Shown here: positions 28,157-62,380 of the stretch, piece by piece | Layout of the letters: each line of letters opens with the position of its first letter | Position numbering within the stretch: the stretch's first letter is position 1 | Assembly (NCBI GenBank): GCA_965206705.1 | Contig: CBDBKJ010000006.1 | Span: 1,849,355-1,913,354 of the forward strand | Reading direction: 5' to 3' | DNA: 64,000 nt | Source: Vicinamibacterales bacterium | GTDB taxonomy: Bacteria; Acidobacteriota; Vicinamibacteria; Vicinamibacterales; UBA8438 | Translations under genes and position numbers: made by a program | Notes under the pieces: model-generated | What the model was told of the DNA's origin: nothing | The model's input: only the letters and a program-made list of their open reading frames with translations | The model's database searches: none

Positions 28157-28157
28157 G

Positions 28158-33298: not shown

Positions 33299-33308
33299 TA
33301 ATGAGGAC

Positions 33309-36648: not shown

Positions 36649-36949
36649 CGACTCCTCCTGACTCGTTTCCGAACGCCCGGCCTCTCCCCGGGGCCCCCGC
36701 GGTTTCGTCGGCGGGAACGGGTGTGGGCCGGCTTGTGCGAGAACGGGACCGCAAGAGTATCCGCCCCGGTGCAGGAAGTCGGGAAACGCAGGTATCCGGC
36801 CGACCCGACCGGGCTCTTGTGGCAAACAGGCCCAAGCCTCTTCCTCGACCCCGCCCACCCGAAGCGCCGACTCGAGGGGGGCTCGACCGGTACCGGCCGA
36901 GGCCGGGCCGCCGACGGCGCGCAGTAGTGCGCCGCCGCGGCGCCGCTCC

Positions 36950-37411: not shown

Positions 37412-37435
37412 GTCGCGATTCCAGGCGCCCGAGAG

Positions 37436-38794: not shown

Positions 38795-38914
38795 TCTCCA
38801 GAAGTACCGAAACGCAAGGGCCCGCAGGCCGCTCGCCCGGACAGCGCGCCTTGCGGCTTCGCTGCCCGCCCAACCGATCCTACAGGAACCCGTGCCCGTC
38901 CGGGGCGCGGATTC

Positions 38915-41320: not shown

Positions 41321-41389
41321 CTCTTCACTCTCCGGGTCCGGGACCCCAGTATAACGCCAGACGGTCCCCGAATCCGCGTGCGTACGGAT

Positions 41390-42562
41390 TCAGGCGACCA
41401 TCACGGTTCTCGGGAACTGCGAGTTGTCCTCGAGGCCGGTCTGCTTGATGGCCGACAGCTCGTCGCTCGTCGGCTGCACGTTGCCGTTCACGTCGGTGAC
41501 GCGGGACACCAGGGTGTGCTCGCCCGACGAGGCCCCGGTCCACGTGAACCGGAACAGCTTCCACGAGTACTGACCGCTGGTCGACGGGTCCAGCGTCGCC
41601 GCCTGCCACGCCCCGTCGTCCACCTTGACCTGCACCCCGCGCAGCGGCGTGCCGTCGTGCAGGACGAAGCCGAGCACCTCGTGACGGTCGCCGACCCGGG
41701 TCACCCGCGCGATCACCGACTTGACGCGCAGGCGAGAGACCTCGGTCTCGTGCCACACCGTTTCGCCGCCGATCTCCTCGGACCACAGGGTGCGATACCA
41801 CCGCGCCTGCCACTTGCCGACGAACCGCTCCGACTGCAGGCGGATGTGGGAGAGCCACTTCACGTTGCTCACGCCGTACCAGCCGGGCACCAGCAGCCGC
41901 AACGGCGAACCCTGCTCCAGCGTCAGCGGCGCCCCGTTCAGCGCATAGGCCAGCAGCGGTCCCGTGGTCATTCCGTCGGCCAGCGACAGGCTGCGGGCGA
42001 ACGGCTGATCGACCTCGTGCGGGGTCCCCCGGAAGTCGACGGTCTCCGGTCCCTTGTCGGCGCCGAAGAAGACGACCTCGCGAGCCGACGGCTTCACCCC
42101 GACCAGATCGAGCACCGCGCGCAGCGGCACGCCCGTCCACCGGCCGTTGCTCGCCAACCCCTGGATGAGCCGGCGCGAGTTGCCCGAGCATTCGTAGCCG
42201 GCGTCGATCTCGATGCTGTCCATGCCCCGCAGATCGTCGAGACTCAGCCCCGCGGGCCGATCGACGAGACCGGACACCCCCAGGCTGAACCCGGCCGGAT
42301 CGACGACCGGCTTGTCGAAGTGCTGAATCGTGTAGAAGGAATCGGCCGGGGTGTACGGGCCGTCGATGTTCCGGACGTCGTAGATGCGGATGGCGGCGGC
42401 GGGGTTCGGCTGCCCGAAGTTCTCCGGCACGTCGGTGAACGGCACCGGCGTCTCGCCCTGAGCCAGGGCCGGCAGCGCCCACCCGGGCACGCCGATCACC
42501 CCCGCGCCGGCCAACGCCAGACTCTGCTTCATCATCTCCCGCCGGGTCGTTCCATTCGTCAT
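41390..42562 (-). CDS. Sulfite-oxidase-family molybdopterin oxidoreductase (SorA-like), TAT-exported
   Basis: MTNGTTRREMMKQSLALAGAGV (TAT signal), Moco-Cys motif GYECSGNSRR, LLVPGWYGVSNVKWL, and a C-terminal Ig-like dimerisation domain. Confidence 0.85.
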   Translation of the reverse strand: MTNGTTRREMMKQSLALAGAGVIGVPGWALPALAQGETPVPFTDVPENFGQPNPAAAIRIYDVRNIDGPYTPADSFYTIQHFDKPVVDPAGFSLGVSGLVDRPAGLSLDDLRGMDSIEIDAGYECSGNSRRLIQGLASNGRWTGVPLRAVLDLVGVKPSAREVVFFGADKGPETVDFRGTPHEVDQPFARSLSLADGMTTGPLLAYALNGAPLTLEQGSPLRLLVPGWYGVSNVKWLSHIRLQSERFVGKWQARWYRTLWSEEIGGETVWHETEVSRLRVKSVIARVTRVGDRHEVLGFVLHDGTPLRGVQVKVDDGAWQAATLDPSTSGQYSWKLFRFTWTGASSGEHTLVSRVTDVNGNVQPTSDELSAIKQTGLEDNSQFPRTVMVA

Positions 42563-42612
42563 CGCGCGCTCCTTGCCGGCATCGCGGGCCGGCGGGTCTT
42601 GCCGCTTCCGGA

Positions 42613-42745
42613 ACCGGCGCTCTTGCGCCGGCGTGCCGTCCGGGCCGGCGTGTCGTGCCGGACCGGCGTCTCGTCCTGGGCCGGGCCGGCGTATCGTTAC
42701 CGAGCCGGCGTCTCGTGACCGAGCGTTACCGAGCCGGCGTCTTAC
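42613..42745. repeat. Degenerate tandem array (6-7 units, 17-29 nt spacing) of RCCGGCGT-NTCGTNNCCG
   Basis: GCCGGCGT (or ACCGGCGT at 42662) occurs at 42627, 42644, 42662, 42685, 42704 and 42733, with a weaker copy at 42613. The array fills the spacer between two co-directional genes. Confidence 0.7.
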
Positions 42746-43728
42746 TGGGACCCGTCCTCCGCGCTGACGGCCGCGCCGGCGAGGATGTTGAACAGGCCGT
42801 AGTTGCCTTCGTGGCAGGCGTACTCGTACAGCGGATACTGATTGCGCTGCATCGGCACCGAGTAGGTCCAGGGCCGGGTCCAGACCGTCGGATCGTCGAC
42901 CGTCACGTCGTACTGCAACGTGTCGCCGTCCACCCGGGTGAAACGCTCGATCAGCGTCAGACTGGGGGTGGTCGCGCCTCGCTGGAAGTTCGTTTCGCGG
43001 AGGAAGTTGGTGGTCTCGACGACCAGGGTGTCGCCATCCCACCGGCCGCGCGAATCACCGGTCCACTGCCGGACGGAGCCTTCGAGATGGTCGCGCCCGT
43101 CCAGCGGCACGACGCGGGCGTTGTGGTTCATCTCTGCGAAGAGGACGACCGTATCCTCGGTCTGGAACACCTGCAGGTTGTTGTTGTAGGCGCTCGGGGC
43201 CATCGGCGGACCCGAGTTGAAGCCGAGGATGCAGCGCACCTGCAGCCCGCCGGGACCCAGATCCTCGACGAAGCCCCCGGGCGTCGGCTCGTGGTTCGAC
43301 ACGCCGCTGCGCGCCTCCGCCAGGGCTTCCTGCCGCTGCCGGGCCTCTTCGGTCAGGGGCGGGATGCGGCCGTCGGGGGGATCGACGATCAGCGACGTGC
43401 GCTCGGTGGTTACCGAGGTCCCCTCATCGAACCAGAAATCGTTGTACGGCACCACGCGGTCCGAGGTGTCGTTGTCGCGGCTCCTCCGCTGAATGGTCGC
43501 AGCCGCGAACTCCGCCGCCTGCTCGGCCGAGAAGCGCTCATCCCCCGCCAGCTCCTCCGGGCGCTCCATCGGGGTCAGGCTGCGAAAATCCCAGACACCC
43601 TGCAGATCCGGGGCGCCCCACGCGGTGCGGGGCGCGGCCGGCGCCTCGGTCTGGGCGCCGGCGCCGGCCGGCGCCAACGTCCCGAGCGCCACCGCGGTCA
43701 GCGAACAGGCGATCAATCGACAATCCAT
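42742..43728 (-). CDS. Secreted conserved hypothetical protein ('YEYACHEGNYG' family), copy A
   Basis: Signal peptide MDCRLIACSLTAVALGTLAPAGAGAQ. It is collinear with 55155..56078 (PDLQGVW, NDFWF, SLIVDPPDGRIPP, GDSRGRWDGDTLVVETTNF, ERFTRVD, YEYACHEGNYG). Confidence 0.75.
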   Translation of the reverse strand: MDCRLIACSLTAVALGTLAPAGAGAQTEAPAAPRTAWGAPDLQGVWDFRSLTPMERPEELAGDERFSAEQAAEFAAATIQRRSRDNDTSDRVVPYNDFWFDEGTSVTTERTSLIVDPPDGRIPPLTEEARQRQEALAEARSGVSNHEPTPGGFVEDLGPGGLQVRCILGFNSGPPMAPSAYNNNLQVFQTEDTVVLFAEMNHNARVVPLDGRDHLEGSVRQWTGDSRGRWDGDTLVVETTNFLRETNFQRGATTPSLTLIERFTRVDGDTLQYDVTVDDPTVWTRPWTYSVPMQRNQYPLYEYACHEGNYGLFNILAGAAVSAEDGSQ

Positions 43729-44939: not shown

Positions 44940-45091
44940 CCGCCCTTCGCAGGAATGAAATCGAAGCGGAATTGTATAACGGCGCCACGAACTGGCTGGC
45001 ATTCTGGACGCGGAAAGTCTGCCGGGTTGCCGGCCTTCCGGCGGGGAGGTTGCAGGACCATCGACAGCGCGATCGAGGAAACCGTGTGGAC

Positions 45092-45490
45092 TCAGGGCAC
45101 GAGGGCAGAGTGGTTGCCGCGGGCCGATCGCCGATCGAACGTATAGGTGCATGTACACCCATGCGCGTGGTTGCGATGGGCGATCAGATAGTCCGCGAAG
45201 TCGGCGGCGCCGAATTCGAACTCGCGCAATGCAGCCCAGACGGTGTCGCGATCCTCGACCGCGAACTCGGCCGTCCGCAGGATTTGGCGCATCACCGGGA
45301 TGACGACGGCCTTTTCTTGGTGGTAGGCGGTCGTCAGGACCCACACCAACTCGACCAGCACGGGCACGCTGACGTAGCCGGGCGACTGCGCCGTGCAGCC
45401 CCCTTCGATGAGGCGCACCACGGCGGCCGCCTGCTCGGGATCGTCCTGCACGATGTAGCGCACCAGGATGTTCGTGTCGAGACCGATCAT
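45092..45490 (-). CDS. vapC: PIN-domain VapC-family toxin
   Basis: MIGLDTNILVRYIVQDDPEQ... with downstream acidic PIN residues. The start overlaps the stop of the antitoxin gene (ATGA). Confidence 0.8.
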   Translation of the reverse strand: MIGLDTNILVRYIVQDDPEQAAAVVRLIEGGCTAQSPGYVSVPVLVELVWVLTTAYHQEKAVVIPVMRQILRTAEFAVEDRDTVWAALREFEFGAADFADYLIAHRNHAHGCTCTYTFDRRSARGNHSALVP

Positions 45491-45732
45491 CGGATTAACG
45501 AGCGGCGGGCGGCCGCCTTCGCGATGGCTGCGTCCATCTCCTGCAGGCTGACCGGGACTGCCGGTTTCGGCACCATGCCCTTCAGTTGCGTCACCGACGC
45601 GGTGACGGGCGTGACTCGCAGGCCGTCGCCTTCCAGCATGAAGTCGATCTTGTCGCCCGGTTTGAGGTGAAGCTTGTCCCGAATCGGTTTGGGCAGGGTC
45701 ACCTGCCCCTTGCTGGTAATCGTCGCCTGCAT
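45487..45732 (-). CDS. AbrB/MazE/SpoVT-family antitoxin
   Basis: MQATITSKGQVTLPKPIRDKLHLKPGDKIDF is the swapped-hairpin AbrB-type DNA-binding motif. Confidence 0.85.
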   Translation of the reverse strand: MQATITSKGQVTLPKPIRDKLHLKPGDKIDFMLEGDGLRVTPVTASVTQLKGMVPKPAVPVSLQEMDAAIAKAAARRSLIR

Positions 45733-45750
45733 TACATTCTCCCCGCAATC

Positions 45751-45766
45751 CTTACATATAGGTAAG
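45751..45766. promoter_or_regulatory. Inverted repeat CTTAC-ATATAG-GTAAG upstream of abrB-vapC
   Basis: Perfect 5-bp arms, 19 nt upstream of the antitoxin start codon, AT-rich. Candidate operator or -10 region. Confidence 0.35.
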
Positions 45767-45955
45767 ATACAGCCGGGTGGAAGCTGAGGTCAAGGACGGG
45801 TCGCCCGGACCCGTTCCCGTCTCGGGGCGCCATGCTGGCCGACCTGCGCACCGTGATGACGCCCTGGAGCGGGAATCGGCGGAGACCGAGGAACGGGCGG
45901 TGGCCTGTGTGGCGGCGACGCGGGCGAAGAGAGTTTGCTGGTCTGCGGATATCCG

Positions 45956-47953
45956 CTACCGGAGGCTCCTGAGAAAGTTCACCAGATTCCAGAGGTCCGC
46001 CTCGGCGAGCCGGTCGCCGAAGGCGTCCATGGCGAAATCGGGGCCGATGCCGTCGCGGATGACCGCGAAGATCTCGCCGTCGCTGCCGCCGTGCTGCCAC
46101 GTCGGGTCGGCGAGATTCGAGGGACGCGGCCCGTAGGCCGCCGCCGCGGCGGCGAGCGCGCCGTCGCCCCGGCCGGTGGACCCGTGGCAGGCGGCGCAGT
46201 GGGCCGCGTAGGCGGCGGCGCCCGCTGCAGCCGATTCCGGCGTGCCCGCCGCCGGGTTGGAAAGCTCCCGCGCCTCGGGATGGGCGTGCGGAGCGGCGGG
46301 ATGGGCGGGCGCCGCGTCCTCCAGGGTGCGCAGCAGCGCCGCCGTGGCCTCGCGGACGTAGCGGTCGCCGGCGATGCCGTCGGCGTAGACGGCGAGGTCG
46401 GCCGGCGTCTGGCCGCGCCGGTTCTCGGCGTGGAGGTCGGCGCCGCGGTCCGTCAGCAGCGCGATGACGCGGTTCATGCCGTGGGAGGCGGCGGCGTGGA
46501 GGGCGGTGTCGCCGGCGGCGTTGGCGGCGTTCACGCGGGCGCCCAACGCAAGGGCCGCCGCGACCGTCTCCAGGGTCCGCCGCTCCTCCGCGGCGGGGAT
46601 GGCGGACCCGAGCGCGGCCGACTCGACCGGGTTGTAGGACGAGAAGTCGCGGCGGTCCCGGATGAACGCGCTGCCGCCGCCCCGGTTGTAGCCCAGCCCG
46701 GCCGCGGCCATCAGCGGCGTGGTGCCGGCGCGGCTCGGCGCGCGCGGGTCCGCGCCCGCGGCGGCGAGCACCTGCATCAACTCCGTCTCGAGAAAGTGGG
46801 CCGCGAGCCAGAACGGAGTCGCGCCGACCCACCGGTCCATGAACGCGAAGTCGTGGCTCCAGCGCCGCACCGGCGTGCCCTTGACGAGGCGCGCGTCCGG
46901 ATTCGCACCGTGCGCGAGCAGCGCGCGCACGAGCGCCGCGCCGGCGCCGGCATCGTCGTTGACGACGCCGCGGTCGCGCAGCGTGCCCCGCAGCACCGCC
47001 GCGTGAACCGCCGTGTAGCCGAGGGGCGCCGCGTTCGGGTCGGCCCCGGCGCGGAGCAGCAGCGCCGCCAGGGAACCGTGGCCGCTGTGGGCGGCGATGA
47101 CGAGGGCGGTGTTGCCGTCGGCGGCGGTGTCGTGCACGTCCGCGCCGGCCGCGATCAGCAGGCGGGCCGACTCGACGTCGCCCGACCGGGCCGCGAACAG
47201 CAGCGCGGTGCTCCCGCCCTCCACAACCTCTTCGAGAGCGATGCCCCCCGACGCCGACCCGGCCGACCGGCTGCCGCCCATGTTGAAGACCCGCCGGCGG
47301 GTCGTGGTCCGGGCCCCGGCGTCGGCGCCGGCGTCCAGCAGCGCCCGCGTGACCGCCGGACGCCGGTTCGCGACGGCCCACATGAGGGCGGTCTGGCCGC
47401 GTGCCGCTTCGGCTGCGTTCACGCGCGCGCCGCGCGCCAGCAGAGCGTTCACCGCCGCCAGGCTGCCGGCGCGAGCTGCCGCCATCAGCGCGGTCTCGCC
47501 GCTCGGGAGGGCCGCGTTCGCGTCCGCACCGGCCGCGAGCAACCGCTCGACCAGGACCCCGTGCCCGCGCCGCGCGGCCATGAGCAACGAGGTGACCCCG
47601 AGGTCGTTGGCCGCGCTCACGTCGGCTCCCGCGCCAATCAGCAGGTCCGCGGCGACCGCGTCCTCGTGGTGCACCGCCCAGTGGAGGGCCGTCGCGCCGT
47701 CCGGCTGCCGCGCATTCACGTCGACCGGTCCGGCCAGCCGGGCGCTCAACTCCGCCGCGTCGCCGTTGCGCACCGCCGTGATCAACGGAGACACGCCGGA
47801 TGCCGCGGTCGTCTGGGCGCGGGCAGCGCCGGACCCGGCGCAAAGCGCCACGGCCAGCAGCACGGTCAATGGAGCCCGCGGCCGGCGCCGCCGCGCCGAA
47901 CCTGCACCCGTGGGCCTGTGAGTCGTCATCCCGGATGTCGCCAAACCGTGCAT
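45956..47953 (-). CDS. Exported ankyrin-repeat protein fused to a C-terminal c-type cytochrome domain (module 3)
   Basis: RR-containing signal peptide (SARRRRPRAPLTVLLAVALCAGSGAARAQ), ankyrin repeats over about 500 aa, and a C-terminal AAHCAACHGSTGRGDG...LWNLVNFLRSL (monoheme cytochrome c fold). Confidence 0.85.
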   Translation of the reverse strand: MHGLATSGMTTHRPTGAGSARRRRPRAPLTVLLAVALCAGSGAARAQTTAASGVSPLITAVRNGDAAELSARLAGPVDVNARQPDGATALHWAVHHEDAVAADLLIGAGADVSAANDLGVTSLLMAARRGHGVLVERLLAAGADANAALPSGETALMAAARAGSLAAVNALLARGARVNAAEAARGQTALMWAVANRRPAVTRALLDAGADAGARTTTRRRVFNMGGSRSAGSASGGIALEEVVEGGSTALLFAARSGDVESARLLIAAGADVHDTAADGNTALVIAAHSGHGSLAALLLRAGADPNAAPLGYTAVHAAVLRGTLRDRGVVNDDAGAGAALVRALLAHGANPDARLVKGTPVRRWSHDFAFMDRWVGATPFWLAAHFLETELMQVLAAAGADPRAPSRAGTTPLMAAAGLGYNRGGGSAFIRDRRDFSSYNPVESAALGSAIPAAEERRTLETVAAALALGARVNAANAAGDTALHAAASHGMNRVIALLTDRGADLHAENRRGQTPADLAVYADGIAGDRYVREATAALLRTLEDAAPAHPAAPHAHPEARELSNPAAGTPESAAAGAAAYAAHCAACHGSTGRGDGALAAAAAAYGPRPSNLADPTWQHGGSDGEIFAVIRDGIGPDFAMDAFGDRLAEADLWNLVNFLRSLR

Positions 47954-47969
47954 GGGGCAATGCCGATCG

Positions 47970-49343
47970 CTACAGGTCCAGCCGCCCGGTGCTGTCGTGG
48001 ATGCGGTCGGCGCGCATCCCCAGCTTCTCCAGCACCGTCACGTGCAGGTTGGCCAGGGGGGTGCCGCCGTCGACCGAACGGCCGGCGCCGGTCGCGCCGT
48101 CGTACCGGATGTGCCGCCCGCCGTGGAGCCGTCCCGCGGCGCCGCCGGCCACGACCATCGGCAAATTCCACGGCCGGTGGTCGCCCTCGGCCATGCCCGC
48201 CCCGTAGTAGAGAACGGCGTGATCGAGCAGCGACCCGTCGCCGTCCGGGGTCGCGGCGAGCCGGTCGAGGTAGTAGGCGAACTGCTCGGCGTGGTGCTTG
48301 TTGATGCGAATCAACTGCTCGCGGCTCGCGGCGCTGCCCTCGTGCGACAGCGGGTGGTGCCCGCCGGGGGCGCCGATCTCCGGATAGGTGCGGCTGCTGA
48401 ACTCGCGGCCGACCATGAACGTGATGACCCGGGTCAGGTCGCTCTGCCACGCGAGCACCTGCAGGTCGAACATCAGCCGCGCATGGTCCGCGAAGGCCGC
48501 GGGGACGCCGGCCGGCTGATCGAACGCCGGCAGCTCGCGCGCCGCCTGCGTCTCGACCCGCTGGATGCGCCGCTCGATGTCGCGGACCGCGTCGAGATAC
48601 TCACCCAGCCTCGCGGCGTCGCTCGGGCCGAGGCCGCGCGTCAGGGCCGCGGCCTTGTCGCGGACCGAATCGAGGAGGCTTCGCCTGCGTTCGGCCCGGG
48701 CCTGGCGCGCGGCGGGGTCGGTGCTGCCGCCGTCCCCGAACATCCGTTCGAACACCACCCGCGGGTTGTGCTCCATCGGCAGCGGGGTGCGCGGCCCGCG
48801 CCAGGCGATGGTATGGCTGTAGGTGCAGCTGTAGCCGCCGTCGCAGGTTCCCGCTCCCTTGTCGCCCGACTCCAGGGACAGCTCGAGCGACCCGATCGGC
48901 GTCTCGCCGCCGATCTCGCGCGCGATGAGCTGATCGAGGGAGACGTCGGCGAGAAAGTCGTTCCCTTCCTGCCCGAACGGCCGCGGAATCGCGCCGGTGA
49001 GGAACTTGGTCGCGCACCGGCCGTGGACCGCGCCGCTTCTCGCGGTCAGGCCGTTCACGTTCTGGGTCAGCCCGCTCAGCACCAGCAACCGGTCGCGAAA
49101 CGGCGCCAGGGGGGCGAGGATGGGCGAGAACGCGAACCCCGCGCCGTCGGTTTCCGGGGTCCACTGATCGAGCACGACCCCGTTCGGGACGTAGACGACG
49201 CCGAACCGCCGGATCGGGCGCGCCGCGGTCCGGGCGAGCGCGGTCGCCGCCGGCACCATGCCGTCGAGCAGCGGCAGCGCCACCACCGCCCCGACCCCGC
49301 GCAGCACCGTCCGGCGGGGAATCGCCTTCCTGGTGATGATCAT
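47970..49343 (-). CDS. DUF1552 domain protein, TAT-exported (module 3)
   Basis: MIITRKAIPRRTVLRGVGAVVALPLLDGMVP and GAPGGHHPLSHE. ATGA overlap with the upstream DUF1592 gene. Confidence 0.85.
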   Translation of the reverse strand: MIITRKAIPRRTVLRGVGAVVALPLLDGMVPAATALARTAARPIRRFGVVYVPNGVVLDQWTPETDGAGFAFSPILAPLAPFRDRLLVLSGLTQNVNGLTARSGAVHGRCATKFLTGAIPRPFGQEGNDFLADVSLDQLIAREIGGETPIGSLELSLESGDKGAGTCDGGYSCTYSHTIAWRGPRTPLPMEHNPRVVFERMFGDGGSTDPAARQARAERRRSLLDSVRDKAAALTRGLGPSDAARLGEYLDAVRDIERRIQRVETQAARELPAFDQPAGVPAAFADHARLMFDLQVLAWQSDLTRVITFMVGREFSSRTYPEIGAPGGHHPLSHEGSAASREQLIRINKHHAEQFAYYLDRLAATPDGDGSLLDHAVLYYGAGMAEGDHRPWNLPMVVAGGAAGRLHGGRHIRYDGATGAGRSVDGGTPLANLHVTVLEKLGMRADRIHDSTGRLDL

Positions 49344-51850
49344 GACTCCGACCTCCGCATCCGGAACGGCGTGCTCTCGACGATGCCCAGGATCAGCGAC
49401 GACCACCGGTAGTCGTCGGCTTCCGCCGCGCGCACGATGCCCCGGATCACCGGGCGATCGTACGACTCGATGCCGCGGCCGAGGGCATAGACGAGAAGCT
49501 TCTCGGTGACCGTCTCGACGAACTGCCCGGAGCGTTCGAGCAGCACCCGCCGCAGCCCGCCGGGACCCTCGAACGTGGTGAGCCCGTCGGCGAGCACGGC
49601 CGAGGCGTCGATGGGCAGCCCGGCATCGCGCTCCCGCCACTGCCCGAGGGCGTCGAAGTTCTCGAGCGCGAAACCCAGCGGGTCCATCGGCGCATGACAA
49701 GCGGCGCAGGCCGGATTCCGCCGGTGCTGCGCGAGCCGTTCGCGCACCGTGCGGGGCTCGCCGGCGGCGCCGCCGGCAGGCAGCGGCGGGATGTCCGGCG
49801 GGGGCGGCGGGGGCGGGGTGCCCAGGACGTTCTCGAGCAGCCACTTCGCGCGGAGCACCGGCGAGGTGCGGTTGCCGTAGGAGGTCACGGCGAGGATGCT
49901 CCCGTGGCCGAGCAGGCCGACGCGCCGGGCCGCGGCGGGTCCCTGGCGGCCGAGGGTCACCCGCCGGTAGCGGCTGCCGGTGACGCCGGGAATGCCGTAG
50001 TGCCGGGCCAGCCGCTCGTTCAGGAACGTATAGTCCGCGCCGAGCAGGTCGATGACGCTGCGGTCCTCGCGCAGCTGGCTCTCGAAGAACAGCTCGGTCT
50101 CGTGCCGGAACGCCTCGCGGAGGTTCTCGTCGAAACCGGGAAAGAGATTCGGATCGGGCACGATGCCGCCGACGCTGCGCAGCGACAGCCACTGGCCCGC
50201 GAAGTTGTCGACGAGGGCCGACGCGCGGGCGTCGGCCAGCATGCGCCGCACCTGGCCCTCGAGCACGCCGGGGTCCGAGAGACGGCCCCGCTCCGCTGCT
50301 TCGAGGAGCTCGTCGTCCGGGATGCTGCTCCAGAGGAAGAACGACAGCCGCGAGGCCAGCTCGAGGTCGGTCAGCAGGTAGGGGGCGCCGGGCGCCGCGC
50401 CCTCCTGATCGCGCTCGATGCGGAACAGGAACTCCGGGTCGATCAGGAGACGCTCGATCGCGGTCTGGATGCCGGCCTCGAAACCGCGGACCGCCCGCCC
50501 CTCCCGGTAGAAGGCCAAGAGCGGCTCGAGGTCGCCGCCGCCGACCGGCCGGCGATAGGCGCGCCGGGCGAGCCGGGCGAGAATCGTCCGGGCGCAGCGT
50601 TCGCCGCCGGCATCCTCGCCGTCGGGCCGGCAGACGAAGATCCGGGATCGGCTGGCGGTCTCACCGGGTCCCGTCACCCCGTAGGGTCCGTCGATGGTGA
50701 CGCTCTCCAGGCCGGGTCCTTCCGGCCGGGACGAGGTGTCGGTGGTTTCCGTGACGGTGGCGCCGTACTCGCGGAGCGCCGGCTGGAGCACCCCCTCGTG
50801 CTCCCACGACTTGTCGGCGAACGACACGCCGACCACCCGGGTGCCGGCCCGCACCGGGATGCGCACCACGAGGCCCGCGTCCGCCCCGGTGCGGTAGTCG
50901 TCCCAGTCCTGGGTCGGATACTCGGAGGCGCCGGCGGCCACGAACGTGCCCGAGAAGCTGACCGGCGCCGGCTTCCCCGGCTCGGCGCCCCCGACGGTGA
51001 ACCGGGCCGCCCGCCGGCCGTCGATCCGCACGTCGAGATCGTGGGCCTCGTCGAGGTTGACGATGTACTCGTACACGCTCCGTTTCAGCCGCACGGTGAC
51101 GACGTACTCGCCGTCGAGGGGGAAGCGATGGCGCACCGCGAGACCGCCGCGCGACCCGAACGGCAGCGCCTCGCTCATCCGGTCGTTCTGGGCCATCGCG
51201 ATCGGGACCGTGTAGCTGCGCGAGGTCAGGCCCGGACCGATCGTGGGGTCCCCGACCGCGAGGCGGCTGATGCGCCGGGCCGCCGACAGGTAGCGCTCCA
51301 TCAACGCCGGCGAGAGGGCGAGGGTGCCCGCGAGGTTGTCGAACCCGTGGCCGGTGTCGTCGGCCGGCAGCAGCGCCGCCGCGTCGACGTCGAGGGCCAG
51401 GAGGTCGCGGACGGCGTTGGCGTACTCGGCCCGGTTCAGCCGGTGGGTCGGCACCCGGCCCGGCTCGACGGTCGAGGCGGCGGCGCGGTCGAGCTCGGCC
51501 TCGAGCCATGTGCGGAACTCGTCGAGGGCCGCCCCGCCGGGACGCGGCCGACCGGCCGGGGGCATCATGCCCCCGCGCAGCTTCAGGACCACCGCCTCCC
51601 AGACGCCGGGCGCCTCGCCGACGCGGGACAGGTCCGCGACGTCGAGGGCGAGGTCCCCCGTCCGCAGCCGCTGGTTGTGGCAGGTGACGCAGTAACGGTC
51701 GAGGAGGGCGCGCTGCGGCGCCGGCGCAGGCGCGATGCTCTGCGCCGGGTTCCCTGCCCCGGGTTGCGGGCGCGGGCCGGCCGCACCGGCGCCGGCGGGG
51801 GCGGCCCCGGCCAGCACCGCGACCAGGGCGGCGGCAACGGCTCGCACCAT
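49340..51850 (-). CDS. DUF1592/DUF1588/DUF1585-type protein with two CxxCH motifs (module 3)
   Basis: LLDRYCVTCHNQRL and RNPACAACHAPMDPLGFALENFD. Confidence 0.85.
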   Translation of the reverse strand: MVRAVAAALVAVLAGAAPAGAGAAGPRPQPGAGNPAQSIAPAPAPQRALLDRYCVTCHNQRLRTGDLALDVADLSRVGEAPGVWEAVVLKLRGGMMPPAGRPRPGGAALDEFRTWLEAELDRAAASTVEPGRVPTHRLNRAEYANAVRDLLALDVDAAALLPADDTGHGFDNLAGTLALSPALMERYLSAARRISRLAVGDPTIGPGLTSRSYTVPIAMAQNDRMSEALPFGSRGGLAVRHRFPLDGEYVVTVRLKRSVYEYIVNLDEAHDLDVRIDGRRAARFTVGGAEPGKPAPVSFSGTFVAAGASEYPTQDWDDYRTGADAGLVVRIPVRAGTRVVGVSFADKSWEHEGVLQPALREYGATVTETTDTSSRPEGPGLESVTIDGPYGVTGPGETASRSRIFVCRPDGEDAGGERCARTILARLARRAYRRPVGGGDLEPLLAFYREGRAVRGFEAGIQTAIERLLIDPEFLFRIERDQEGAAPGAPYLLTDLELASRLSFFLWSSIPDDELLEAAERGRLSDPGVLEGQVRRMLADARASALVDNFAGQWLSLRSVGGIVPDPNLFPGFDENLREAFRHETELFFESQLREDRSVIDLLGADYTFLNERLARHYGIPGVTGSRYRRVTLGRQGPAAARRVGLLGHGSILAVTSYGNRTSPVLRAKWLLENVLGTPPPPPPPDIPPLPAGGAAGEPRTVRERLAQHRRNPACAACHAPMDPLGFALENFDALGQWRERDAGLPIDASAVLADGLTTFEGPGGLRRVLLERSGQFVETVTEKLLVYALGRGIESYDRPVIRGIVRAAEADDYRWSSLILGIVESTPFRMRRSES

Positions 51851-51986
51851 GCGCCGATCTTACACCCGCGGAACGACGGTCAGCGGGGGGCGCCGGGTCG
51901 ATCTGCCCGCGCCGCTCGGTTCCAGCTCCTCGGGCCCCCGGCGAGCCCCGGGCGCCGGCAAACCGGCGGTGGTCCGGGCAGCCGCC

Positions 51987-52157
51987 CCCCGGAGCCCGCG
52001 GCAATCCCGTTTACAACTTGTGCGCCCCCTGCGACTCGTGGCCCGCACCCCGGAACCCGGGGCAGGCTGGATGCAATTTGCCACCTGCCAGCGTCGTCGA
52101 AGCGGTCGGGGTCGGGCATCCCCGGAGCCCGGGGCAGGCCCGATGCGATTTCGCCAC
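51987..52157. repeat. Three dispersed copies of CCCCGGAGCCCGGGGCAGGC...GATGCRATTT(C)GCCAC in a divergent promoter region
   Basis: R1 (52048-52084) and R2 (52120-52157) differ at about 5 of 38 positions. R0 (51987-52026) shares only the first ~16 nt. Each unit contains the mini-palindrome CCCCGG-N3-CCGGGG. Confidence 0.65.
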
Positions 52158-52302
52158 GGGCTCCGGTGCTCCTATACTGAGGGCCGGACAGTCAATGGGA
52201 CCATCGCCGGTGTCGCCCGGAGCGCCCGTGGCGAGAGTTCCGCGTCGCTCCTGGACCAGAGTGGAAACCGGCGGCGATGATGCCCGAGACCGAGGTGACA
52301 CG

Positions 52303-54087
52303 ATGTCGAAGCAACCACGAACCAACGGCGTCCGGCGTCTCGTCGGCGCGGCAGTCGCGGTGGCGGCAACCCTGCTCGTCGGCGCCGCCTCCCCCGCCGG
52401 GGTTGCCCTCGCCCAGGACGGCAGCGGCGCTGGCGTGATTGCGGGCCGGGTGACGGCCGACCACGGCGAGGTTCGCGCCCTCCGCGTGAAGGCGCACGAC
52501 ACCGTCCACCGCATCGCCTACACCGTCTACACCCGGGACGGCGGCTACCGCATCTACAACCTGCCGCCGAGCACCTACGACGTTTCGGTGGTCGAGGAGG
52601 CGTTCGAGTCACCGGTCGCGACGGTAGAGGTGCGGGCCGGTGGGACGACAACCGTCGATCTCGCGCTGACGGCCCTCGGGGCGGGCCCCGAGCAGGGCGC
52701 GGCGGCGCGGGGAGCGACGGCGCAACGCAACTACGGCGGCGGCGCCGCGGACGACCGGGCGGCGGAGATCGTCGATTTCGACACCCTCTATCCGCCCCAT
52801 CCCGCCCGCGACGTCATGCTGCGGTCCTGCTTCGGCTGCCACGGACCGGCCGGCTTCCACCGCCGCGGGCCGCGGAACGAGAACGGGTGGCGGCAGGCGG
52901 TCGACCGGATGTTCGACGTCGACGGCCGCGTGGCCAACATGGCCCCCGGGGTGCCGCAGGTGACGCACGACCTCGTGTCGGTGGACGAGAAGGAGCTGAT
53001 CATCCAGTACCTGACCGCCAACTTCGGACCCGGGTCGCAGCCCCGCGACCTCGAGCTCGACCCCCTCGTCCGCGACGAGGAGGCGCTGTCCAAGGCGGTC
53101 TACATCGAGTACGAGCTGAACCGCGGACCGCGGCGCCTGCTCTCGAACGGCGCGCCGCCGCGCGGCAGCATTCACAGCGTCTTCGCGAGCGTGGCCGAAC
53201 CGGGCGTCATCTGGGTATCCGGCAACGGCTCGAACTCCATCATTCGCATGGACAGCCGAAATCCCGACTTCGAGACGCGCACGCGGGAGCTCTGGATCGA
53301 GAACCCCGAGAACATCAACGTCACGCCGCACGGCATCGTCGAGTATGGCGGGCGCGTGTACTGGGTCGAGCTGACCGGCGACCACTTCGGCGAGCTCGAT
53401 CCGGCCACCGGCGAGATGACCCGCCATGCGCTGCCGACGACCGGCGCCGGACCGCACAGCCTCTGGGTCGACTCCCGCGGCCAGTTCTGGTACACCTACT
53501 TCGCCTCGGCCGGCCGAATCGGCCGCTACGATGCCACCGCGAACGACTTCACCGAGTGGGAGCCGCTGGCCGGGTTCAGCGGCTACGGCATCGTCGTCGA
53601 CCGGCAGGACCGCGTCTGGGCGGTGGGCCTGCACACCCCCGCGATCTTCATGTACAACCAGGAAACGGCCGAGTGGCGGTCGTACCCCCTCGCCAATCCG
53701 GCGCGCCGCCCCGCCATCGACGCCAACGGCAAGGTCTGGGCGGCGCACTACTTCGGCAACGCCATCTCGAAGATCGACCCGGTGACGGGGACCGTCACCG
53801 AGTTCGAGCTGCCCCTCAAGGACGGGAACCCCTACGACGTCTGGCCGGACGCCGAGGACAACCTGTGGGTCGAGAACGGCATCTACAACGCGCTGGTGCG
53901 GTTCGATCAGAAGACGAACGCCTTCACCTACTTCCCGTTCCCCGAGCTCCAGGCGCATACGCCGAAGCTCGACCGCGACGGGGAGGGCACGCTCTGGTTC
54001 ACGCTGCGCGGGCCGTCCGGACCGGGGGTGGCCGCGCTCAAGCCGAACGGCAACGTGCCGCCGAGTCGGGTGAGCGCCGGCCAGTAG
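52303..54087 (+). CDS. Secreted carboxypeptidase-regulatory-like domain / CxxCH / Vgb-like beta-propeller protein
   Basis: Signal peptide; GRVTADHGEVRALRVKAHD...GGYRIYNLPPSTYDVSV; LRSCFGCHGPAG; and a C-terminal repeated propeller (GPHSLWVDSRGQFWYT, GYGIVVDRQDRVWAV, NLWVENGIYN). Confidence 0.8.
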   Translation: MSKQPRTNGVRRLVGAAVAVAATLLVGAASPAGVALAQDGSGAGVIAGRVTADHGEVRALRVKAHDTVHRIAYTVYTRDGGYRIYNLPPSTYDVSVVEEAFESPVATVEVRAGGTTTVDLALTALGAGPEQGAAARGATAQRNYGGGAADDRAAEIVDFDTLYPPHPARDVMLRSCFGCHGPAGFHRRGPRNENGWRQAVDRMFDVDGRVANMAPGVPQVTHDLVSVDEKELIIQYLTANFGPGSQPRDLELDPLVRDEEALSKAVYIEYELNRGPRRLLSNGAPPRGSIHSVFASVAEPGVIWVSGNGSNSIIRMDSRNPDFETRTRELWIENPENINVTPHGIVEYGGRVYWVELTGDHFGELDPATGEMTRHALPTTGAGPHSLWVDSRGQFWYTYFASAGRIGRYDATANDFTEWEPLAGFSGYGIVVDRQDRVWAVGLHTPAIFMYNQETAEWRSYPLANPARRPAIDANGKVWAAHYFGNAISKIDPVTGTVTEFELPLKDGNPYDVWPDAEDNLWVENGIYNALVRFDQKTNAFTYFPFPELQAHTPKLDRDGEGTLWFTLRGPSGPGVAALKPNGNVPPSRVSAGQ

Positions 54088-54240
54088 CGCCGGCAGACCG
54101 GGGTTCGGGAAACGCCGGCCGGAGCGGGCGGGAAGGTGAGGGCGGGGCCGCCGATCCCCGGGCGCCGGGTCCGGCCGCCACCGCCGTTGCGGGATTGCGG
54201 CGTCCGACCGATGCCGCGGGACAGCAGAGAGGGGCATGCG

Positions 54241-55134
54241 ATGAGATGGTGGGCAGCCGCGAGTGCGGCAGCGTTGATGGGCATCCTGGTTCAGCCGGCC
54301 GCGGGGCAGACCACCAGCCTGGCCGGAGTCATCGACTTCCACGTGCATTCCGGCCCGGACTCGAGACCCCGGTCGGTAAGCGACCTTGAGATCGCGCGCA
54401 TCGGGAAGCGGGCGGGCATGCGCGGGCTCGTCTTCAAGAACCACTTCACGATGACCGCGGACCGCGCCTGGCTGGCGATGCAGGAGGTGCCCGGCATCGA
54501 GATCTTCGGGGGGGTCGCGCTCAACCACTCCGTCGGCGGGCTCAACGCAGAGGTCGTCCGGCAGATGGTGGCGTTCTCCGGCGGGCGCGGCAAGGTGGTG
54601 TGGCTGCCGACCTTCGACGCCGAGTTCTGGATGACCCGCGCGGGCGACCCCGGCGCGTTCGTGCCGGTCATGCGCGACGGCGTGATGGACCCGGCCCTCG
54701 GCGAGATCTTCGACCTGATCGCCGAGCACGACCTCGTGCTGGCGCTGGGGCACTCGTCGCCCGAGGAGGTGGTGGCCCTGATTCCCGAGGCGCGCGCCCG
54801 CGGCGTCGAGCAGATTCTCGTCACCCACGGGCTCGGTCAGTCGCCGACCGCCGCCCAGCTCCGGGCGATGGCCGATCACGACGTGGTCATCGAGCTGGTC
54901 TGGCTGGCGGTCATGAACGGCGAGTTCACCTACGCCGACTACGCCGAGGCCATCCTCGAGTACGGCGCCGACCACTTCCTGCTGTCGTCCGACCTCGGAC
55001 AGGCGGGAAACCCGCTGCACCCCGACGGCCTGAACGCCCTCATGGACGGGCTGCGCGGCGAAGGCATCAGCGACGCGGACATCGACGTGATGATCCGCGA
55101 GAACCCGGCCCGGCTCCTCGGCCTCGACCCGTAG
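54241..55134 (+). CDS. Secreted amidohydrolase-superfamily (TIM-barrel metal hydrolase) protein
   Basis: Signal peptide MRWWAAASAAALMGILVQPAAGQ, then GVIDFHVHSGPD (HxH metal motif) and ...ILVTHG.... Confidence 0.65.
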   Translation: MRWWAAASAAALMGILVQPAAGQTTSLAGVIDFHVHSGPDSRPRSVSDLEIARIGKRAGMRGLVFKNHFTMTADRAWLAMQEVPGIEIFGGVALNHSVGGLNAEVVRQMVAFSGGRGKVVWLPTFDAEFWMTRAGDPGAFVPVMRDGVMDPALGEIFDLIAEHDLVLALGHSSPEEVVALIPEARARGVEQILVTHGLGQSPTAAQLRAMADHDVVIELVWLAVMNGEFTYADYAEAILEYGADHFLLSSDLGQAGNPLHPDGLNALMDGLRGEGISDADIDVMIRENPARLLGLDP

Positions 55135-55154
55135 GAGGGACCTGGGAGGTCCAC

Positions 55155-56078
55155 ATGATTCGAAGGAGTTTCTCGCTGGCGGTGCTGGCGGCGGCCCTCG
55201 CGGCGCCCGGCGCCGCATTCGCACAGGACGGATGGACCGCGCCGCGCACCGTCGACGGCCAGCCGGACCTGCAGGGGCTCTGGACGAACTCGACGACCAC
55301 CCCGCTCGAACGCCCGCGGGACGTGGCGGACCGGGCCGTCTACACGGACGAGGAAATCGCGGCCATCGACGCCGCGAACGTCGGCCGCAACGACCGCCCG
55401 CCGCCGGCCGGAGACCCCGGCACCTACAACGACTTCTGGTGGGAGCGCGGGACCGCCCTCGCCCGGACGTCGCTCGTCATCGACCCGCCGGACGGCCGGC
55501 TGCCGCCGCGGACGCCGGCCGGGGACGCGCGGGCGGGATGGACCCGCGGCGCCGACGCCTGGACCGACCGCGCCATGGCCGAGCGCTGCGTCACCCGCGG
55601 CGCGCCGAAGCGGCCCGGCGGCTACAACAACCACTTCCTGGTCCTGCAGACGCCGGGGTACGTCGTGATGCTGCAGGAGATGATCCACGAGCCGCGCATC
55701 ATCCCCCTCGACGGCGGCCCGCCGGTCGACGCACGGATCCGGCTCTGGATGGGCGACTCGCGCGGCCGCTGGGAGGGCGACACGCTGGTCGTCGAGACCA
55801 CGAACTTCCGCGACGAGATCTACACCAACTCGTTCAACTGCTGCCCCGGGGCGAGCGGCGCCCTGACGATGGTGGAGCGCTTCACCCGGGTCGACGCCGA
55901 CACCATCGACCACCACTACACCGTGAACGACCCCGACACCTATACGCGCCCGTGGACCGCGTCCATCCCGATGCGCCGCTTCGCCGGCCCGATGTACGAG
56001 TACGCCTGTCACGAGGGCAACTACGGGATGGAGAACCTGCTGCGCGGGGCGCGCGTCCAGGAGGGCGCGGAACGATAG
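55155..56078 (+). CDS. Secreted conserved hypothetical protein ('YEYACHEGNYG' family), copy B
   Basis: Signal peptide MIRRSFSLAVLAAALAAPGAAFAQ. Collinear paralog of 42742..43728. Confidence 0.75.
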   Translation: MIRRSFSLAVLAAALAAPGAAFAQDGWTAPRTVDGQPDLQGLWTNSTTTPLERPRDVADRAVYTDEEIAAIDAANVGRNDRPPPAGDPGTYNDFWWERGTALARTSLVIDPPDGRLPPRTPAGDARAGWTRGADAWTDRAMAERCVTRGAPKRPGGYNNHFLVLQTPGYVVMLQEMIHEPRIIPLDGGPPVDARIRLWMGDSRGRWEGDTLVVETTNFRDEIYTNSFNCCPGASGALTMVERFTRVDADTIDHHYTVNDPDTYTRPWTASIPMRRFAGPMYEYACHEGNYGMENLLRGARVQEGAER

Positions 56079-58882: not shown

Positions 58883-59160
58883 TGTCCCGCTTGCCCACCC
58901 CGTCGGCAGCGACCGTGCTCGGCAGCCCGTGGTGCCATCAACGCTATACGTCCGCGGCGATAGACGACATGATCGCACGCGGCCGTTGGGCCGACTGGGC
59001 CGACCTGGGCCGAGCCATCCGCGCCGATGCGTTCGTCATGGATCGGGTTGAGCGCATCTGTCGCGCTCATATCCGGGACCACGCCCCTCACTCGACGTTG
59101 AGCGCCAGCCTGCTGGCGGGCTGCGGACCTGGCCCACACGAGCAATGGAGGTCGTTTTGA
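58882..59160 (+). CDS. Hypothetical small protein
   Basis: The ATG overlaps the sulfatase stop (TGATG). I recognise no family. Composition is slightly AT-richer than the neighbours. Confidence 0.3.
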   Translation: MSRLPTPSAATVLGSPWCHQRYTSAAIDDMIARGRWADWADLGRAIRADAFVMDRVERICRAHIRDHAPHSTLSASLLAGCGPGPHEQWRSF

Positions 59161-59171
59161 CGGATCGTACG

Positions 59172-59886
59172 ATGGCACTTCGTTCGGGCCTGAGCCTCGT
59201 CTTTTGCCTGGCACTCGCCGGTGGCACTTTGATGGCGCAGGATGCACCCCGGACCGAGCTGGGGGCGCGACTGGCCGAGCATCACGGCGACGGCGCCTTC
59301 CACCGCCTGGAGGAAGTGAAGCTGCGGCCCGCCGTCGCCTACCCGGACGAGACAGCGTTCTTCGGTCTCAAGACTCCCACAGCCGCCTACCTGGCCTATC
59401 TGGCGGGCCTGCGTGCGGTCGAGGAAGAGGCCGGCGTGACGACCATGCTCGTGAACAACGTCCTGCGGCGGACTCGACCGGGTCGCCCAGAGGACTGGCC
59501 CATCAAACCCTACTGCGACTGGGACATGGTGGTGTTGAAGCACTACCCGAGCTGGCGGGCGTGGGAGGCGGTGGAGGGGAGCGCAGCGAATGAGGCGGCA
59601 GTCGTGCATCGCGAGGCCGCGGTGGCGGACGAGCACGTGGTGATTACCCCGGCGCCGCAGGTACCCGCAACGCCGCGGCAGGTTACCTCCGACGACCCGA
59701 CCGACACGGTAATGTATGTGGTGAACCTGATCCGGCTCCGCGACGAGGCCTACTACCCGGACGGCGAGTATCCCCCCTCGTCCGGCCTCGAAGCCTACAG
59801 ACGTTACCAGGGTGGCGGGGAGCTGGCGACGCTGGACCGCGTGCGATTTGTCGGCGCCGAGGTGCCCCACGACCTCAACCCTCCCG
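59172..59886 (+). pseudogene. 5' part of a secreted tandem DUF1330-like gene, interrupted by IS66 insertion
   Basis: Signal peptide MALRSGLSLVFCLALAGGTLMAQ and a DUF1330-like CDWDMVVLKHYPSWRAWEAV. The second domain starts at MYVVNLIRLRDE and is cut at 59886. The present ORF reads 7 codons into the IS before stopping at 59906. Confidence 0.7.
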
Positions 59887-61744: not shown

Positions 61745-61752
61745 CCCTCCCG

Positions 61753-61928
61753 ACGTCCGCTGGTGGCGCATGAACATCGTGAAATACCCCAGCTTGCGCG
61801 ACTTCATGGAGATAGAACTGACCCCCGAGTTCCGCAGCATCTACCGCCACAAGGTGGCGGGCCTGAATCCGATCTGCAGCCCGGCCACCGTGCCCACCCT
61901 GCCCGAGTCATCGCTGGGTGACGGGTAG
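61753..61928 (+). pseudogene. 3' part of the IS66-interrupted DUF1330-like gene
   Basis: Removing the IS and one TSD copy joins ...VPHDLNPP to DVRWWRMNIVKYPSLRDFMEIELTPEFRSIYRHKVAGL... in frame. This is a DUF1330-type C-terminus. Confidence 0.7.
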
Positions 61929-62050
61929 CGGGGGGTACCTGGACGGTCGGTACTTGTTTTAGCGCGGTGGATTCTTGCGCGCGAGATCCAACATTTTGAA
62001 CTTGTACTTTCGTCTTCCAGGCGCCGCGAGCGTGCCGACATCCCGCTCGG

Positions 62051-62380
62051 CTACCCATCGCATCCCGTGGCGATCGCCAGCGCGCGGCATAGCTGGCGCA
62101 TCTTGTCCGGAGCAAGCGTGCCGACAAAGCCCTTCAGTTGACTCCGGGGCACCGTGAAGAGGTTGCACAGGTTCACGCAGGACGCCTGCTTCAGGCCTTC
62201 CTCCACGCCGACGGATACCTCGGTTGGCGCTCCGCGCGAAGTGGTCGTCACCGGAGCAACGATCACCGTATGAAGGAGAGGTATCAGAGAGGACCGGCTG
62301 AGGACCACGACCGGTCTGCGCTTGTCCGGATGCGGCCGGTGCAGACGCCAGATCTCGCCGCGATTCACTCTGGCGGCCAT
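62051..62380 (-). CDS. mazF: MazF/PemK-family endoribonuclease toxin
   Basis: RGEIWRLHRPHPDKRRPVVVLSRSS...VIVAPVTTTSRG is the PemK/MazF signature. It overlaps the upstream RHH gene. Confidence 0.85.
   Translation of the reverse strand: MAARVNRGEIWRLHRPHPDKRRPVVVLSRSSLIPLLHTVIVAPVTTTSRGAPTEVSVGVEEGLKQASCVNLCNLFTVPRSQLKGFVGTLAPDKMRQLCRALAIATGCDG

Follow-up and report, generated by a model that had tools for sequence, protein, structure and literature searches.

Three anciently diverged DUF1592-DUF1552 cassettes with subtype-specific partner genes in a probable secreted-protein island of a Vicinamibacterales bacterium

The DNA analysed here, hereafter the window, is a stretch of 64,000 nt from a Vicinamibacterales bacterium (Acidobacteriota; contig CBDBKJ010000006.1, positions 1,849,355-1,913,354), and this study concerns the groups of genes, termed modules 1, 2 and 3, that it carries around the protein families DUF1592 and DUF1552. 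We consider it probable that the region is part of an island rich in secreted proteins, holding three anciently diverged DUF1592-DUF1552-ankyrin cassettes and one remnant, furnished with accessory genes of two subtypes and forming a periplasmic redox unit. The G+C content of the window is approximately 70 % and genes were therefore picked by third-position G+C and then checked against Pfam; coordinates below are those of the window. A reading made earlier from the sequence alone, called here the original prediction, had proposed that the same five families (DUF1592, DUF1552, a protein family with no Pfam match here named YEY, a CarboxypepD_reg/CxxCH protein and a cytochrome c) occur together twice within 20 kb, in modules 2 and 3, as the result of functional linkage rather than of a single segmental duplication.

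Module 3 combines a minus-strand string with a divergent group on the plus strand. DUF1592-3 (49340-51850, -) encodes an exported multidomain protein of ~836 aa, all of whose Pfam domains score above their gathering cut-offs. Its stop codon is overlapped by 4 nt (ATGA), in translational coupling, by the start of DUF1552-3 (47970-49343, -), a 457-aa protein with the twin-arginine signal RRTVLRG (PF07586, 324 bits against a cut-off of 30). A third gene, starting 16 nt downstream of DUF1552-3, encodes an exported ankyrin-repeat protein with a C-terminal class-I cytochrome c (45956-47953, -; Ank_2 165 bits, Cytochrome_CBB3 49.6 bits). Beyond a divergent intergenic region of 452 nt (51851-52302) lies CPDprop (52303-54087, +), whose exported product of 594 aa joins a CarboxypepD_reg domain, a haem motif CFGCH that is conserved among homologues and a Vgb_lyase/SGL-type β-propeller. 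It is followed by the gene for an exported DUF6282/Amidohydro_2 amidohydrolase-fold protein of 297 aa (54241-55134, +; PF19799, 192 bits) and by YEY_B (55155-56078, +), an exported protein of 307 aa with the E-Y-A-C-H-E-x-N motif of its family. Coordinates and Pfam families agree with the layout originally described on both strands: an ATGA-coupled DUF1592-3 and DUF1552-3 followed by the ankyrin-cytochrome c gene on the minus strand, and a CarboxypepD_reg/CxxCH/Vgb-like propeller protein, an amidohydrolase-fold protein and YEY copy B on the plus strand.

Module 2 (34567-43728) is a single string lying entirely on the minus strand. In the order of transcription it comprises YEY_A (42742-43728, -), a sulfite-oxidase-family molybdoenzyme with a signal for twin-arginine translocation (Tat) (41390-42562, -; Oxidored_molyb, 140 bits), DUF1592-2 (38915-41311, -; assigned by Pfam), DUF1552-2 (37436-38788, -; PF07586, 329 bits against a cut-off of 30), cytM2 (36950-37411, -), which encodes an exported protein of 153 aa with CIACHAVYRE near its C-terminus and no Pfam match, and CPDheme (34567-36648, -), whose exported product consists of a CarboxypepD_reg domain, a CYDCH motif and a C-terminal region of ~500 aa that matches nothing in Pfam or in sequence searches of the PDB. 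The contents originally listed for this module are all present, although the molybdoenzyme had been left off the list. Every protein of modules 2 and 3 carries an N-terminal signal-like segment, as read from the sequences, and at least five proteins of the two modules together have c-type haem motifs.

Two further elements had been left out of the original prediction. Module 1 (7311-12678) shows the gene order of module 3, with DUF1592-1 (10246-12678, -; assigned by Pfam) followed by DUF1552-1 (8897-10246, -) and by a gene for an ankyrin-repeat protein, which is without a cytochrome domain (7311-8771, -) and is 41 % identical to the ankyrin-cytochrome c protein of module 3. The second is a fourth, truncated DUF1552, which covers residues ~285-450 of the family with a frame break near 33934-33955 (33593-34089, +; tblastn identity 48-57 %, E ~1e-38) and may be what is left of a fourth cassette broken by an insertion. 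Directly upstream of this remnant is a weak Phd/YefM-like open reading frame (ORF) (33147-33566, +).

All three DUF1592 copies contain the domains PSD3-PSD5-PSD4-PSCyt3-PSD2 in this order, each above its gathering score (PF07626, PF07637, PF07631, PF07627 and PF07624), and their translations hold two predicted haem sites, YCVTCH together with CAACH or CASCH; in DUF1592-3 these are an N-terminal YCVTCH and a CAACH within PSCyt3. For DUF1552, the twin-arginine residues R10 and R11 are invariant in 43 homologues, as are H329, H330, S333 and H334, while the last histidine of an HxxSHH motif is not (HGLSHH in copy 1, HPLSHH in copy 2 and HPLSHE in copy 3). The AlphaFold2 model of DUF1552-3 (mean pLDDT, the predicted local distance difference test score, 71.8; predicted template modelling score, pTM, 0.80) gave top Foldseek matches that all belong to the alkaline-phosphatase superfamily, namely LtaP (4uop; E 1.1e-4, template modelling score (TM) 0.43-0.48), 3lxq and sulfatases, so that on the model an alkaline-phosphatase-superfamily-like fold is likely. 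PDB sequence searches with the DUF1552 profile, DUF1592 and CPDheme returned no match at E<=1.

Among the accessory proteins, the CPDprop propeller matches PDB entries 2qc5 and 2z2n (E 1e-15 to 1e-16) and PF24684 (81 bits against a cut-off of 50). Like the Vgb propellers and the quinohaemoprotein-type propeller dehydrogenases, it joins a Vgb_lyase/SGL-type propeller to a haem-c motif; unlike Vgb, it is exported and adds an N-terminal CarboxypepD_reg domain, and identification as a streptogramin B lyase was rejected at 47-48 bits against NCBIfam Vgb(A)/Vgb(B) cut-offs of 600. The module-2 molybdoenzyme resembles the periplasmic sulfite dehydrogenases SorAB and SorT in being an Oxidored_molyb enzyme with a Tat signal and with c-type cytochromes encoded nearby. 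It differs in that the cytochrome gene follows DUF1552 rather than adjoining the molybdoenzyme, and it scores 162 bits for SorA (cut-off 600), 129 for SorT (570) and 141 for SoxC (420), far short of the equivalog level. The CxxCHxxYRE near the C-terminus of cytM2 is conserved in 8/8 homologues, a position typical of class II cytochromes and suggestive of that class; cytM2 has no Pfam or NCBIfam match at E<=0.01 and hence none to a curated class II cytochrome family.

The conservation of these arrangements was followed in 173 loci overall. They include two samples anchored from opposite directions: (a) 80 genome loci anchored on YEY (L001-L080), mainly from Vicinamibacterales and Bryobacterales metagenome-assembled genomes, and (b) 80 metagenome loci anchored on DUF1552. 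In sample (b), DUF1592 lies directly upstream of DUF1552 in 71 of the 72 loci with room for it, and of the 27 loci that extend at least 1.5 kb to both sides, 26 have an ankyrin gene as a direct neighbour; within the window, DUF1552 adjoins DUF1592 in all three modules. Such counts indicate that the conserved unit is a cassette, predicted to be periplasmic, of DUF1592, DUF1552 and an ankyrin protein, with DUF1592 as a putative Sec-exported two-haem cytochrome. The core pair is of a known but functionally uncharacterised kind; a genomic survey of Verrucomicrobia (2017) reported PSCyt3-type genes to lie usually beside an unknown gene family and their function to be wholly unknown (PMC5615132). 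In the few papers on these families we found no account of the ankyrin partner, the subtype accessory sets, the fold assigned to DUF1552 or how large the YEY family is.

Around this core, further genes follow the subtype of the cassette. Seven orthologues of module 3 were recovered (L084, L085, L164-L167 and L171), with identities of 72-94 % for DUF1592, 77-97 % for DUF1552 and 68-96 % for CPDprop. In all seven, CPDprop adjoins DUF1592, divergently or co-directionally, and an ankyrin-cytochrome c fusion follows DUF1552; outside this clade, few ankyrin partners have a C-terminal CxxCH (7/58). Only the two closest relatives, L164 and L171, have the DUF6282 gene after CPDprop. The module-2 clade shows a different string, (molybdoenzyme) - DUF1592 - DUF1552 - small cytochrome - (CPDheme or epoxide hydrolase), in L124, L126, L131, L133, L137 and L164, and L025, in a sister clade, resembles it. 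The molybdoenzyme keeps its place upstream of DUF1592 in L164 and L137, homologues of cytM2 stand directly after DUF1552 in L124, L126, L131, L133 and L137, and orthologues of CPDheme adjoin module-2-type cassettes in L025, L126 and L110. The window has an epoxide hydrolase gene of its own just outside module 2 (30241-31572).

In 10 of the 80 loci of sample (b), YEY lies within 3.5 kb of DUF1552. CPDprop and the small cytochrome were each seen in 5 of these 80 loci, epoxide hydrolase in 3, CPDheme in 2 and the molybdoenzyme in a single one. When copies rather than loci are counted, all five of the small cytochromes, 5/6 of the CPDprop genes (the sixth lying within 3 kb), 4/4 of the epoxide hydrolases and 2/2 of the CPDheme genes fall in the first 1.5 kb beside a cassette. 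These accessories track the clades of a neighbour-joining tree of 104 DUF1552 proteins, and the comparison indicates that they are conserved beside the cassettes across genomes.

YEY presents a different picture. The family is large, with 25,387 clusters at 50 % identity (E<=1e-3; 13,588 at E<=1e-10), has no Pfam or NCBIfam match in the present searches and gave only chance matches in a sequence search of the PDB (E>=0.24). Its members share an invariant E-Y-A-C-H-E-x-N motif and a second, likewise invariant cysteine, and the invariant Cys145, Cys285 and His286 of YEY_B would fit a ligand or cofactor site; in the AlphaFold2 model (pLDDT 72.7) the three residues lie in or beside the two worst-modelled segments. 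Foldseek comparison of this model gave weak matches to calycin barrels of the fatty-acid-binding-protein (FABP) type (best E 2.7e-3; TM 0.27 on the query and 0.55 on the target), and fusion partners add weak hints in the form of a Lipocalin_5 domain in one homologue and a squalene-hopene-cyclase-like repeat. YEY genes form tandem arrays of two to seven copies in 42 of the 80 YEY-anchored loci, where the commonest other neighbours are pyrroloquinoline quinone (PQQ)-type propeller proteins (30/80) and a DUF6152-like protein identified by eye (17/80); DUF1592 occurs in 11-13 of these loci and DUF1552 in 8. A frequent position beside PQQ, GSDH or NHL-type propeller proteins was also seen.

As a measure of linkage, YEY density was compared at different distances: the 153 kb of sequence lying no more than 1.5 kb from a cassette contained 10 YEY genes and the 239 kb further away contained 9 (p=0.17). 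Reciprocally, DUF1592 was counted around YEY (p=0.22). Neither test of decay with distance is significant, and therefore a specific linkage of YEY to the cassettes is not claimed; we conclude that YEY genes are recurrent satellites of such islands. YEY directly flanks cassettes in L025, L027, L028, L039, L044, L105, L112, L117, L120, L140, L141, L155 and L163, which are spread over several clades of both trees, and one YEY subclade is always cassette-adjacent. The 88 % orthologue of YEY_A in L164 has kept its position. In L165, as further along in the window, CPDprop is followed by a YEY gene, and YEY_B follows DUF6282 in L171 and probably also in L170; in L164, YEY_B is absent and is replaced by 410 bp of unrelated DNA. 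Its closest orthologues in other lineages (81-83 %) stand after a GSDH-CMD fusion or beside a cytochrome c-metallo-beta-lactamase fusion. At the DUF6282/YEY_B junction, L171 has a 600-bp insertion (10831-11430, against window 55135-55141) with a glyoxalase-family gene on the opposite strand. By these alignments the junction is a hotspot of gene turnover.

The explanation that competes best with a subtype-structured cassette system, though in our judgement unlikely, is coincidence: expanded families of secreted proteins would simply cluster in islands, and any functional tie would be limited to the DUF1592/DUF1552 pair. The size of the YEY family, its presence in several loci on the same chromosome and its non-significant decay with distance fit this view, as do the promiscuity of CarboxypepD_reg and CxxCH and the density of DUF1592/DUF1552 pairs themselves (2-3 per 21 kb in L084, L085, L165 and L167). 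However, coincidence does not sit well with an ankyrin gene adjacent in nearly every locus where it could be scored, with CPDprop, small cytochrome, CPDheme and epoxide hydrolase genes confined to the first 1.5-3 kb of cassettes and tracking specific DUF1552 clades, or with the close packing of the genes, some overlapping by 4 nt, and their strings on a single strand, both of which are conserved across genomes at 70-95 % identity.

A single functional system of five families present twice, as the original prediction held, is less probable still. The 13 unrelated loci (L025 to L163) in which YEY directly flanks a cassette, the YEY subclade that consistently adjoins cassettes, the succession of CPDprop and YEY in L165 and the window, and the CarboxypepD_reg protein with a haem motif in both modules would all be expected from it. 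On detailed examination of the pairs, however, full-length homology between modules 2 and 3 was found in only three, DUF1592, DUF1552 and YEY. CPDprop and CPDheme each retain a CxxCH motif, but in hhalign their alignment is limited to 76 columns in the N-terminal domain of ~80 residues (probability 97 %, E 6.5e-11), with no homology found in the remaining 450-500 residues, and their BLASTP comparison is not significant; the ankyrin-cytochrome c protein and the 153-aa cytM2 show no homology by BLASTP (E 0.2). YEY adds its flat density with distance, its scarcity of DUF1592 neighbours relative to other YEY genes and PQQ-type propellers, the association of the nearest YEY_B orthologues outside the lineage with a GSDH-CMD fusion, and the absence of YEY_B from L164. 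Modules 2 and 3 are, by their homologies and neighbourhoods, different conserved subtypes with different helper genes and not one five-gene set twice. They look alike in five families because the core pair is truly paralogous, CarboxypepD_reg and CxxCH are promiscuous and YEY satellites are scattered through such islands. Of the functional linkage proposed originally, what stands across genomes is the DUF1592-DUF1552-ankyrin core with its subtype accessories; a single five-family set is not supported, and a link to YEY cannot be told apart from co-enrichment, within such regions, of two greatly expanded families.

The same comparison bears on how the copies arose. The amino acid identities are 52 % (2 against 3), 56 % (1 against 3) and 47 % (1 against 2) for DUF1592, 50-51 % for every pair of DUF1552 (51 % for 2 against 3) and 44 % for YEY_A against YEY_B. 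At the nucleotide level, module 3 resembles other parts of the window only in DUF1592, DUF1552 and YEY coding sequence, with 67-73 % identity (~68 %), and no similarity was detected in intergenic DNA or other genes. The closest outside relatives, in other Vicinamibacterales genomes, are far nearer (77-97 % for orthologues of module 3 and 88-96 % for those of module 2), and in the 104-protein tree each of the three window copies of DUF1552 occupies a clade of its own, grouped with orthologues from elsewhere. One of these genomes (L164) is collinear with window 37.6-57.1 kb at 85-93 % nucleotide identity, and another (L171) matches 45.5-59.1 kb at about 89-96 % (DUF1552-3 97 %, YEY_B 97.7 %). 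Modules 2 and 3 stand side by side in L164 as well, and therefore the arrangement itself is inherited. Taken together, identities and phylogeny point to old rather than recent divergence, with the module copies being anciently diverged paralogues, and on this point the original prediction holds. A recent duplication of one multi-gene block followed by rearrangement, which the shared Pfam families within 20 kb and the weak nucleotide similarity of the coding regions might bring to mind, is rejected as hardly credible, given protein identities of just 44-56 %, identity that is not high and reaches neither through intergenic DNA nor across the whole gene block, much closer orthologues elsewhere, the three separate clades and the adjacency conserved in L164.

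The original prediction had also described the DNA between the divergent units as a shared control region of 450 nt. The spacer of 452 nt exists and contains one sigma-70-like site, TCGCCA-16-TATACT (52151-52178, + strand). It is poorly conserved against L164, where only a block around TATACT, the probable -10 element, is kept. The orthologous spacer measures 124 bp in L167, and the units are co-directional in L085 and L166. Since spacer length and orientation vary among orthologous loci, a conserved bidirectional control region is not supported. The spacer also holds a 31-nt direct repeat, CCCGGRRCCCGGGGCAGGCNNGATGCRATTT, at 52049-52079 and 52121-52151 (+), 72 nt apart. The window has these two copies and L164 has none; no such repeat is expected by chance, and it may bind a regulator or have arisen by local duplication. 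An Rfam scan of the whole window matched no family.

Transcription was followed in metatranscriptome contigs from four sponge-associated runs. At 90 % likeness the contigs are dominated by paralogues; at 98 % only fragments of 50-220 nt are left, two of which cross the DUF1592-3/DUF1552-3 junction (49316-49371). The cassette families are transcribed in sponge-associated communities, and the fragments do not define operons at this locus. Sequencing runs containing window 47000-55500 or close relatives include sponge metagenomes and metatranscriptomes, and the organism or its close relatives may be sponge-associated.

Returning to the cassettes as parts of a periplasmic redox unit, their working may be envisaged as follows. 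Each cassette would serve as a unit of electron transfer or oxidoreduction in the periplasm, in which partner enzymes (the haem-propeller protein, the molybdoenzyme), DUF1552 or both act on a periplasmic substrate, and electrons would run via the c-type haems of DUF1592, the ankyrin-cytochrome c protein or the small cytochrome towards the respiratory chain. The ankyrin protein may act as an adaptor or scaffold, and the putative calycin-like barrels of YEY possibly bind small hydrophobic ligands. Alternatively, DUF1552 could have a preparatory role, such as cleaving a sulfate or phosphate ester from the substrate.

Several points weigh against this interpretation of the region. An alkaline-phosphatase-type fold points to hydrolysis or group transfer and not to redox chemistry, and the match itself is weak, with TM scores of 0.43-0.48 and a root-mean-square deviation of about 7 Å. 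DUF1592, DUF1552, YEY and the CPD-haem proteins are without a known substrate, cofactor or activity. The accessory counts are small, and the metagenome loci behind them are often short and were selected by their likeness to DUF1552-3, hence are not a random sample. Homologues of CPDprop at 52-62 % identity (L172, L173) have no DUF1592 or DUF1552 within 8 kb, and the RNA evidence is not locus-specific. In L172 (8001-11406), the 62 %-identical CPDprop homologue is followed by an Amidohydro_1 protein, an arrangement that echoes the succession of CPDprop and DUF6282.

Known systems offer partial parallels. DUF1501 proteins are sulfatase-like. In Planctomycetes and Verrucomicrobia they form pairs with PSCyt1/PSCyt2/PSD1 proteins (pairing: PMC5615132) in which, as here, a Tat-type exported protein with an alkaline-phosphatase-superfamily fold stands beside a large multidomain c-type cytochrome; the Pfam families differ and the likeness is one of logic. 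Closer are the PSCyt3/PSD and DUF1552 pairs of Rhodopirellula and Verrucomicrobia (PMC5615132), which share the domain architecture with CxxCH, the obligatory DUF1552 neighbour, the high copy number and the unknown function, whereas the present cassettes belong to Acidobacteriota and have a near-obligatory ankyrin partner and subtype redox accessories, of which a limited search of the literature gave no mention. Cbp2D of Cellvibrio japonicus is likewise an extracytoplasmic multidomain protein joining c-type cytochrome domains to DUF1587 (PSD3); one of its cytochrome domains was shown to reduce lytic polysaccharide monooxygenases (LPMOs) in vitro, and its authors propose that it takes part in extracytoplasmic electron transfer (PMC8981238). 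Unlike the proteins described here, it has CBM2, YceI-like and FN3 domains and is without DUF1592/PSCyt3/PSD2, and the text consulted mentions neither a DUF1552 nor an ankyrin partner. The window itself yielded no LPMO gene.

Other genes were noted in the remainder of the window. A three-subunit molybdenum hydroxylase of the xanthine dehydrogenase/CO dehydrogenase type (24682-28928, -), with flavin (FAD), molybdenum cofactor (MoCo) and 2Fe-2S subunits, of which the iron-sulfur one bears a Tat signal, has glyoxalase-fold genes and an epoxide hydrolase gene on its flanks and strengthens the impression of an island devoted to periplasmic redox functions. Between the epoxide hydrolase gene and the DUF1552 remnant lie a PadR-family regulator gene (32632-33234, -) and, beside it, the gene of a membrane protein with a weak HAAS match (31826-32980, -). 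At the border of module 3, a stretch of 979 bp (44977-45955; genes 45092-45490 and 45487-45732, -) encodes a PIN-domain toxin and a MazE/AbrB-type antitoxin, together vapBC-like; it is absent from L164, which has 100 bp instead, while in the closer relative L171 the matching site is occupied by a MazE-like gene. The window encodes a HipA-family kinase at 4146-5765 (-), and L171 likewise has a HipA gene (16750-17782) close to its module-3 region. Approximately 3.2 kb with an IS66 transposase gene (59072-62320; transposase 60199-61668, -) have no counterpart in L171, which suggests an insertion in the lineage of the window, and a second, DDE transposase gene lies near the window end (63139-63960, -). 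Downstream of a gene for a 421-aa MacB/FtsX-type permease (18389-19654, +), three consecutive ORFs in the same frame are split by stop codons only (19821-20894, -; third-position G+C 0.95-0.98) and may be a disrupted gene or an antisense artefact. At 20942-23065, long ORFs overlap on both strands (686 and 597 aa) with moderate coding signal and no Pfam match.

For annotation, these results show that promiscuous domains and motifs such as CarboxypepD_reg and CxxCH can make unrelated neighbours resemble duplicated gene sets, and the YEY family, abundant in soil and sponge-associated Acidobacteriota, merits a family description of its own. In Planctomycetes and Verrucomicrobia, and on the present evidence in Vicinamibacterales too, few uncharacterised gene pairs are as expanded as those of DUF1592-type cytochromes with DUF1552. 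The near-obligatory exported ankyrin partner, the likely fold and Tat export of DUF1552, and the subtype-specific oxidoreductase partners, which may hint at substrates, provide starting points for experiments; exported ankyrin proteins are also of interest in a sponge-associated setting. A bolder and rather doubtful proposition is that the DUF1592-DUF1552-ankyrin triad represents a widespread modular periplasmic enzyme system of Acidobacteriota and of the Planctomycetes-Verrucomicrobia-Chlamydiae (PVC) bacteria, in which a Tat-exported alkaline-phosphatase-type protein would be wired to a two-haem cytochrome, the ankyrin scaffold would dock interchangeable oxidoreductases and YEY would deliver small ligands. 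If this were true, the triad would be the redox counterpart of polysaccharide-utilisation loci, with dozens of substrate-specific paralogues per genome.

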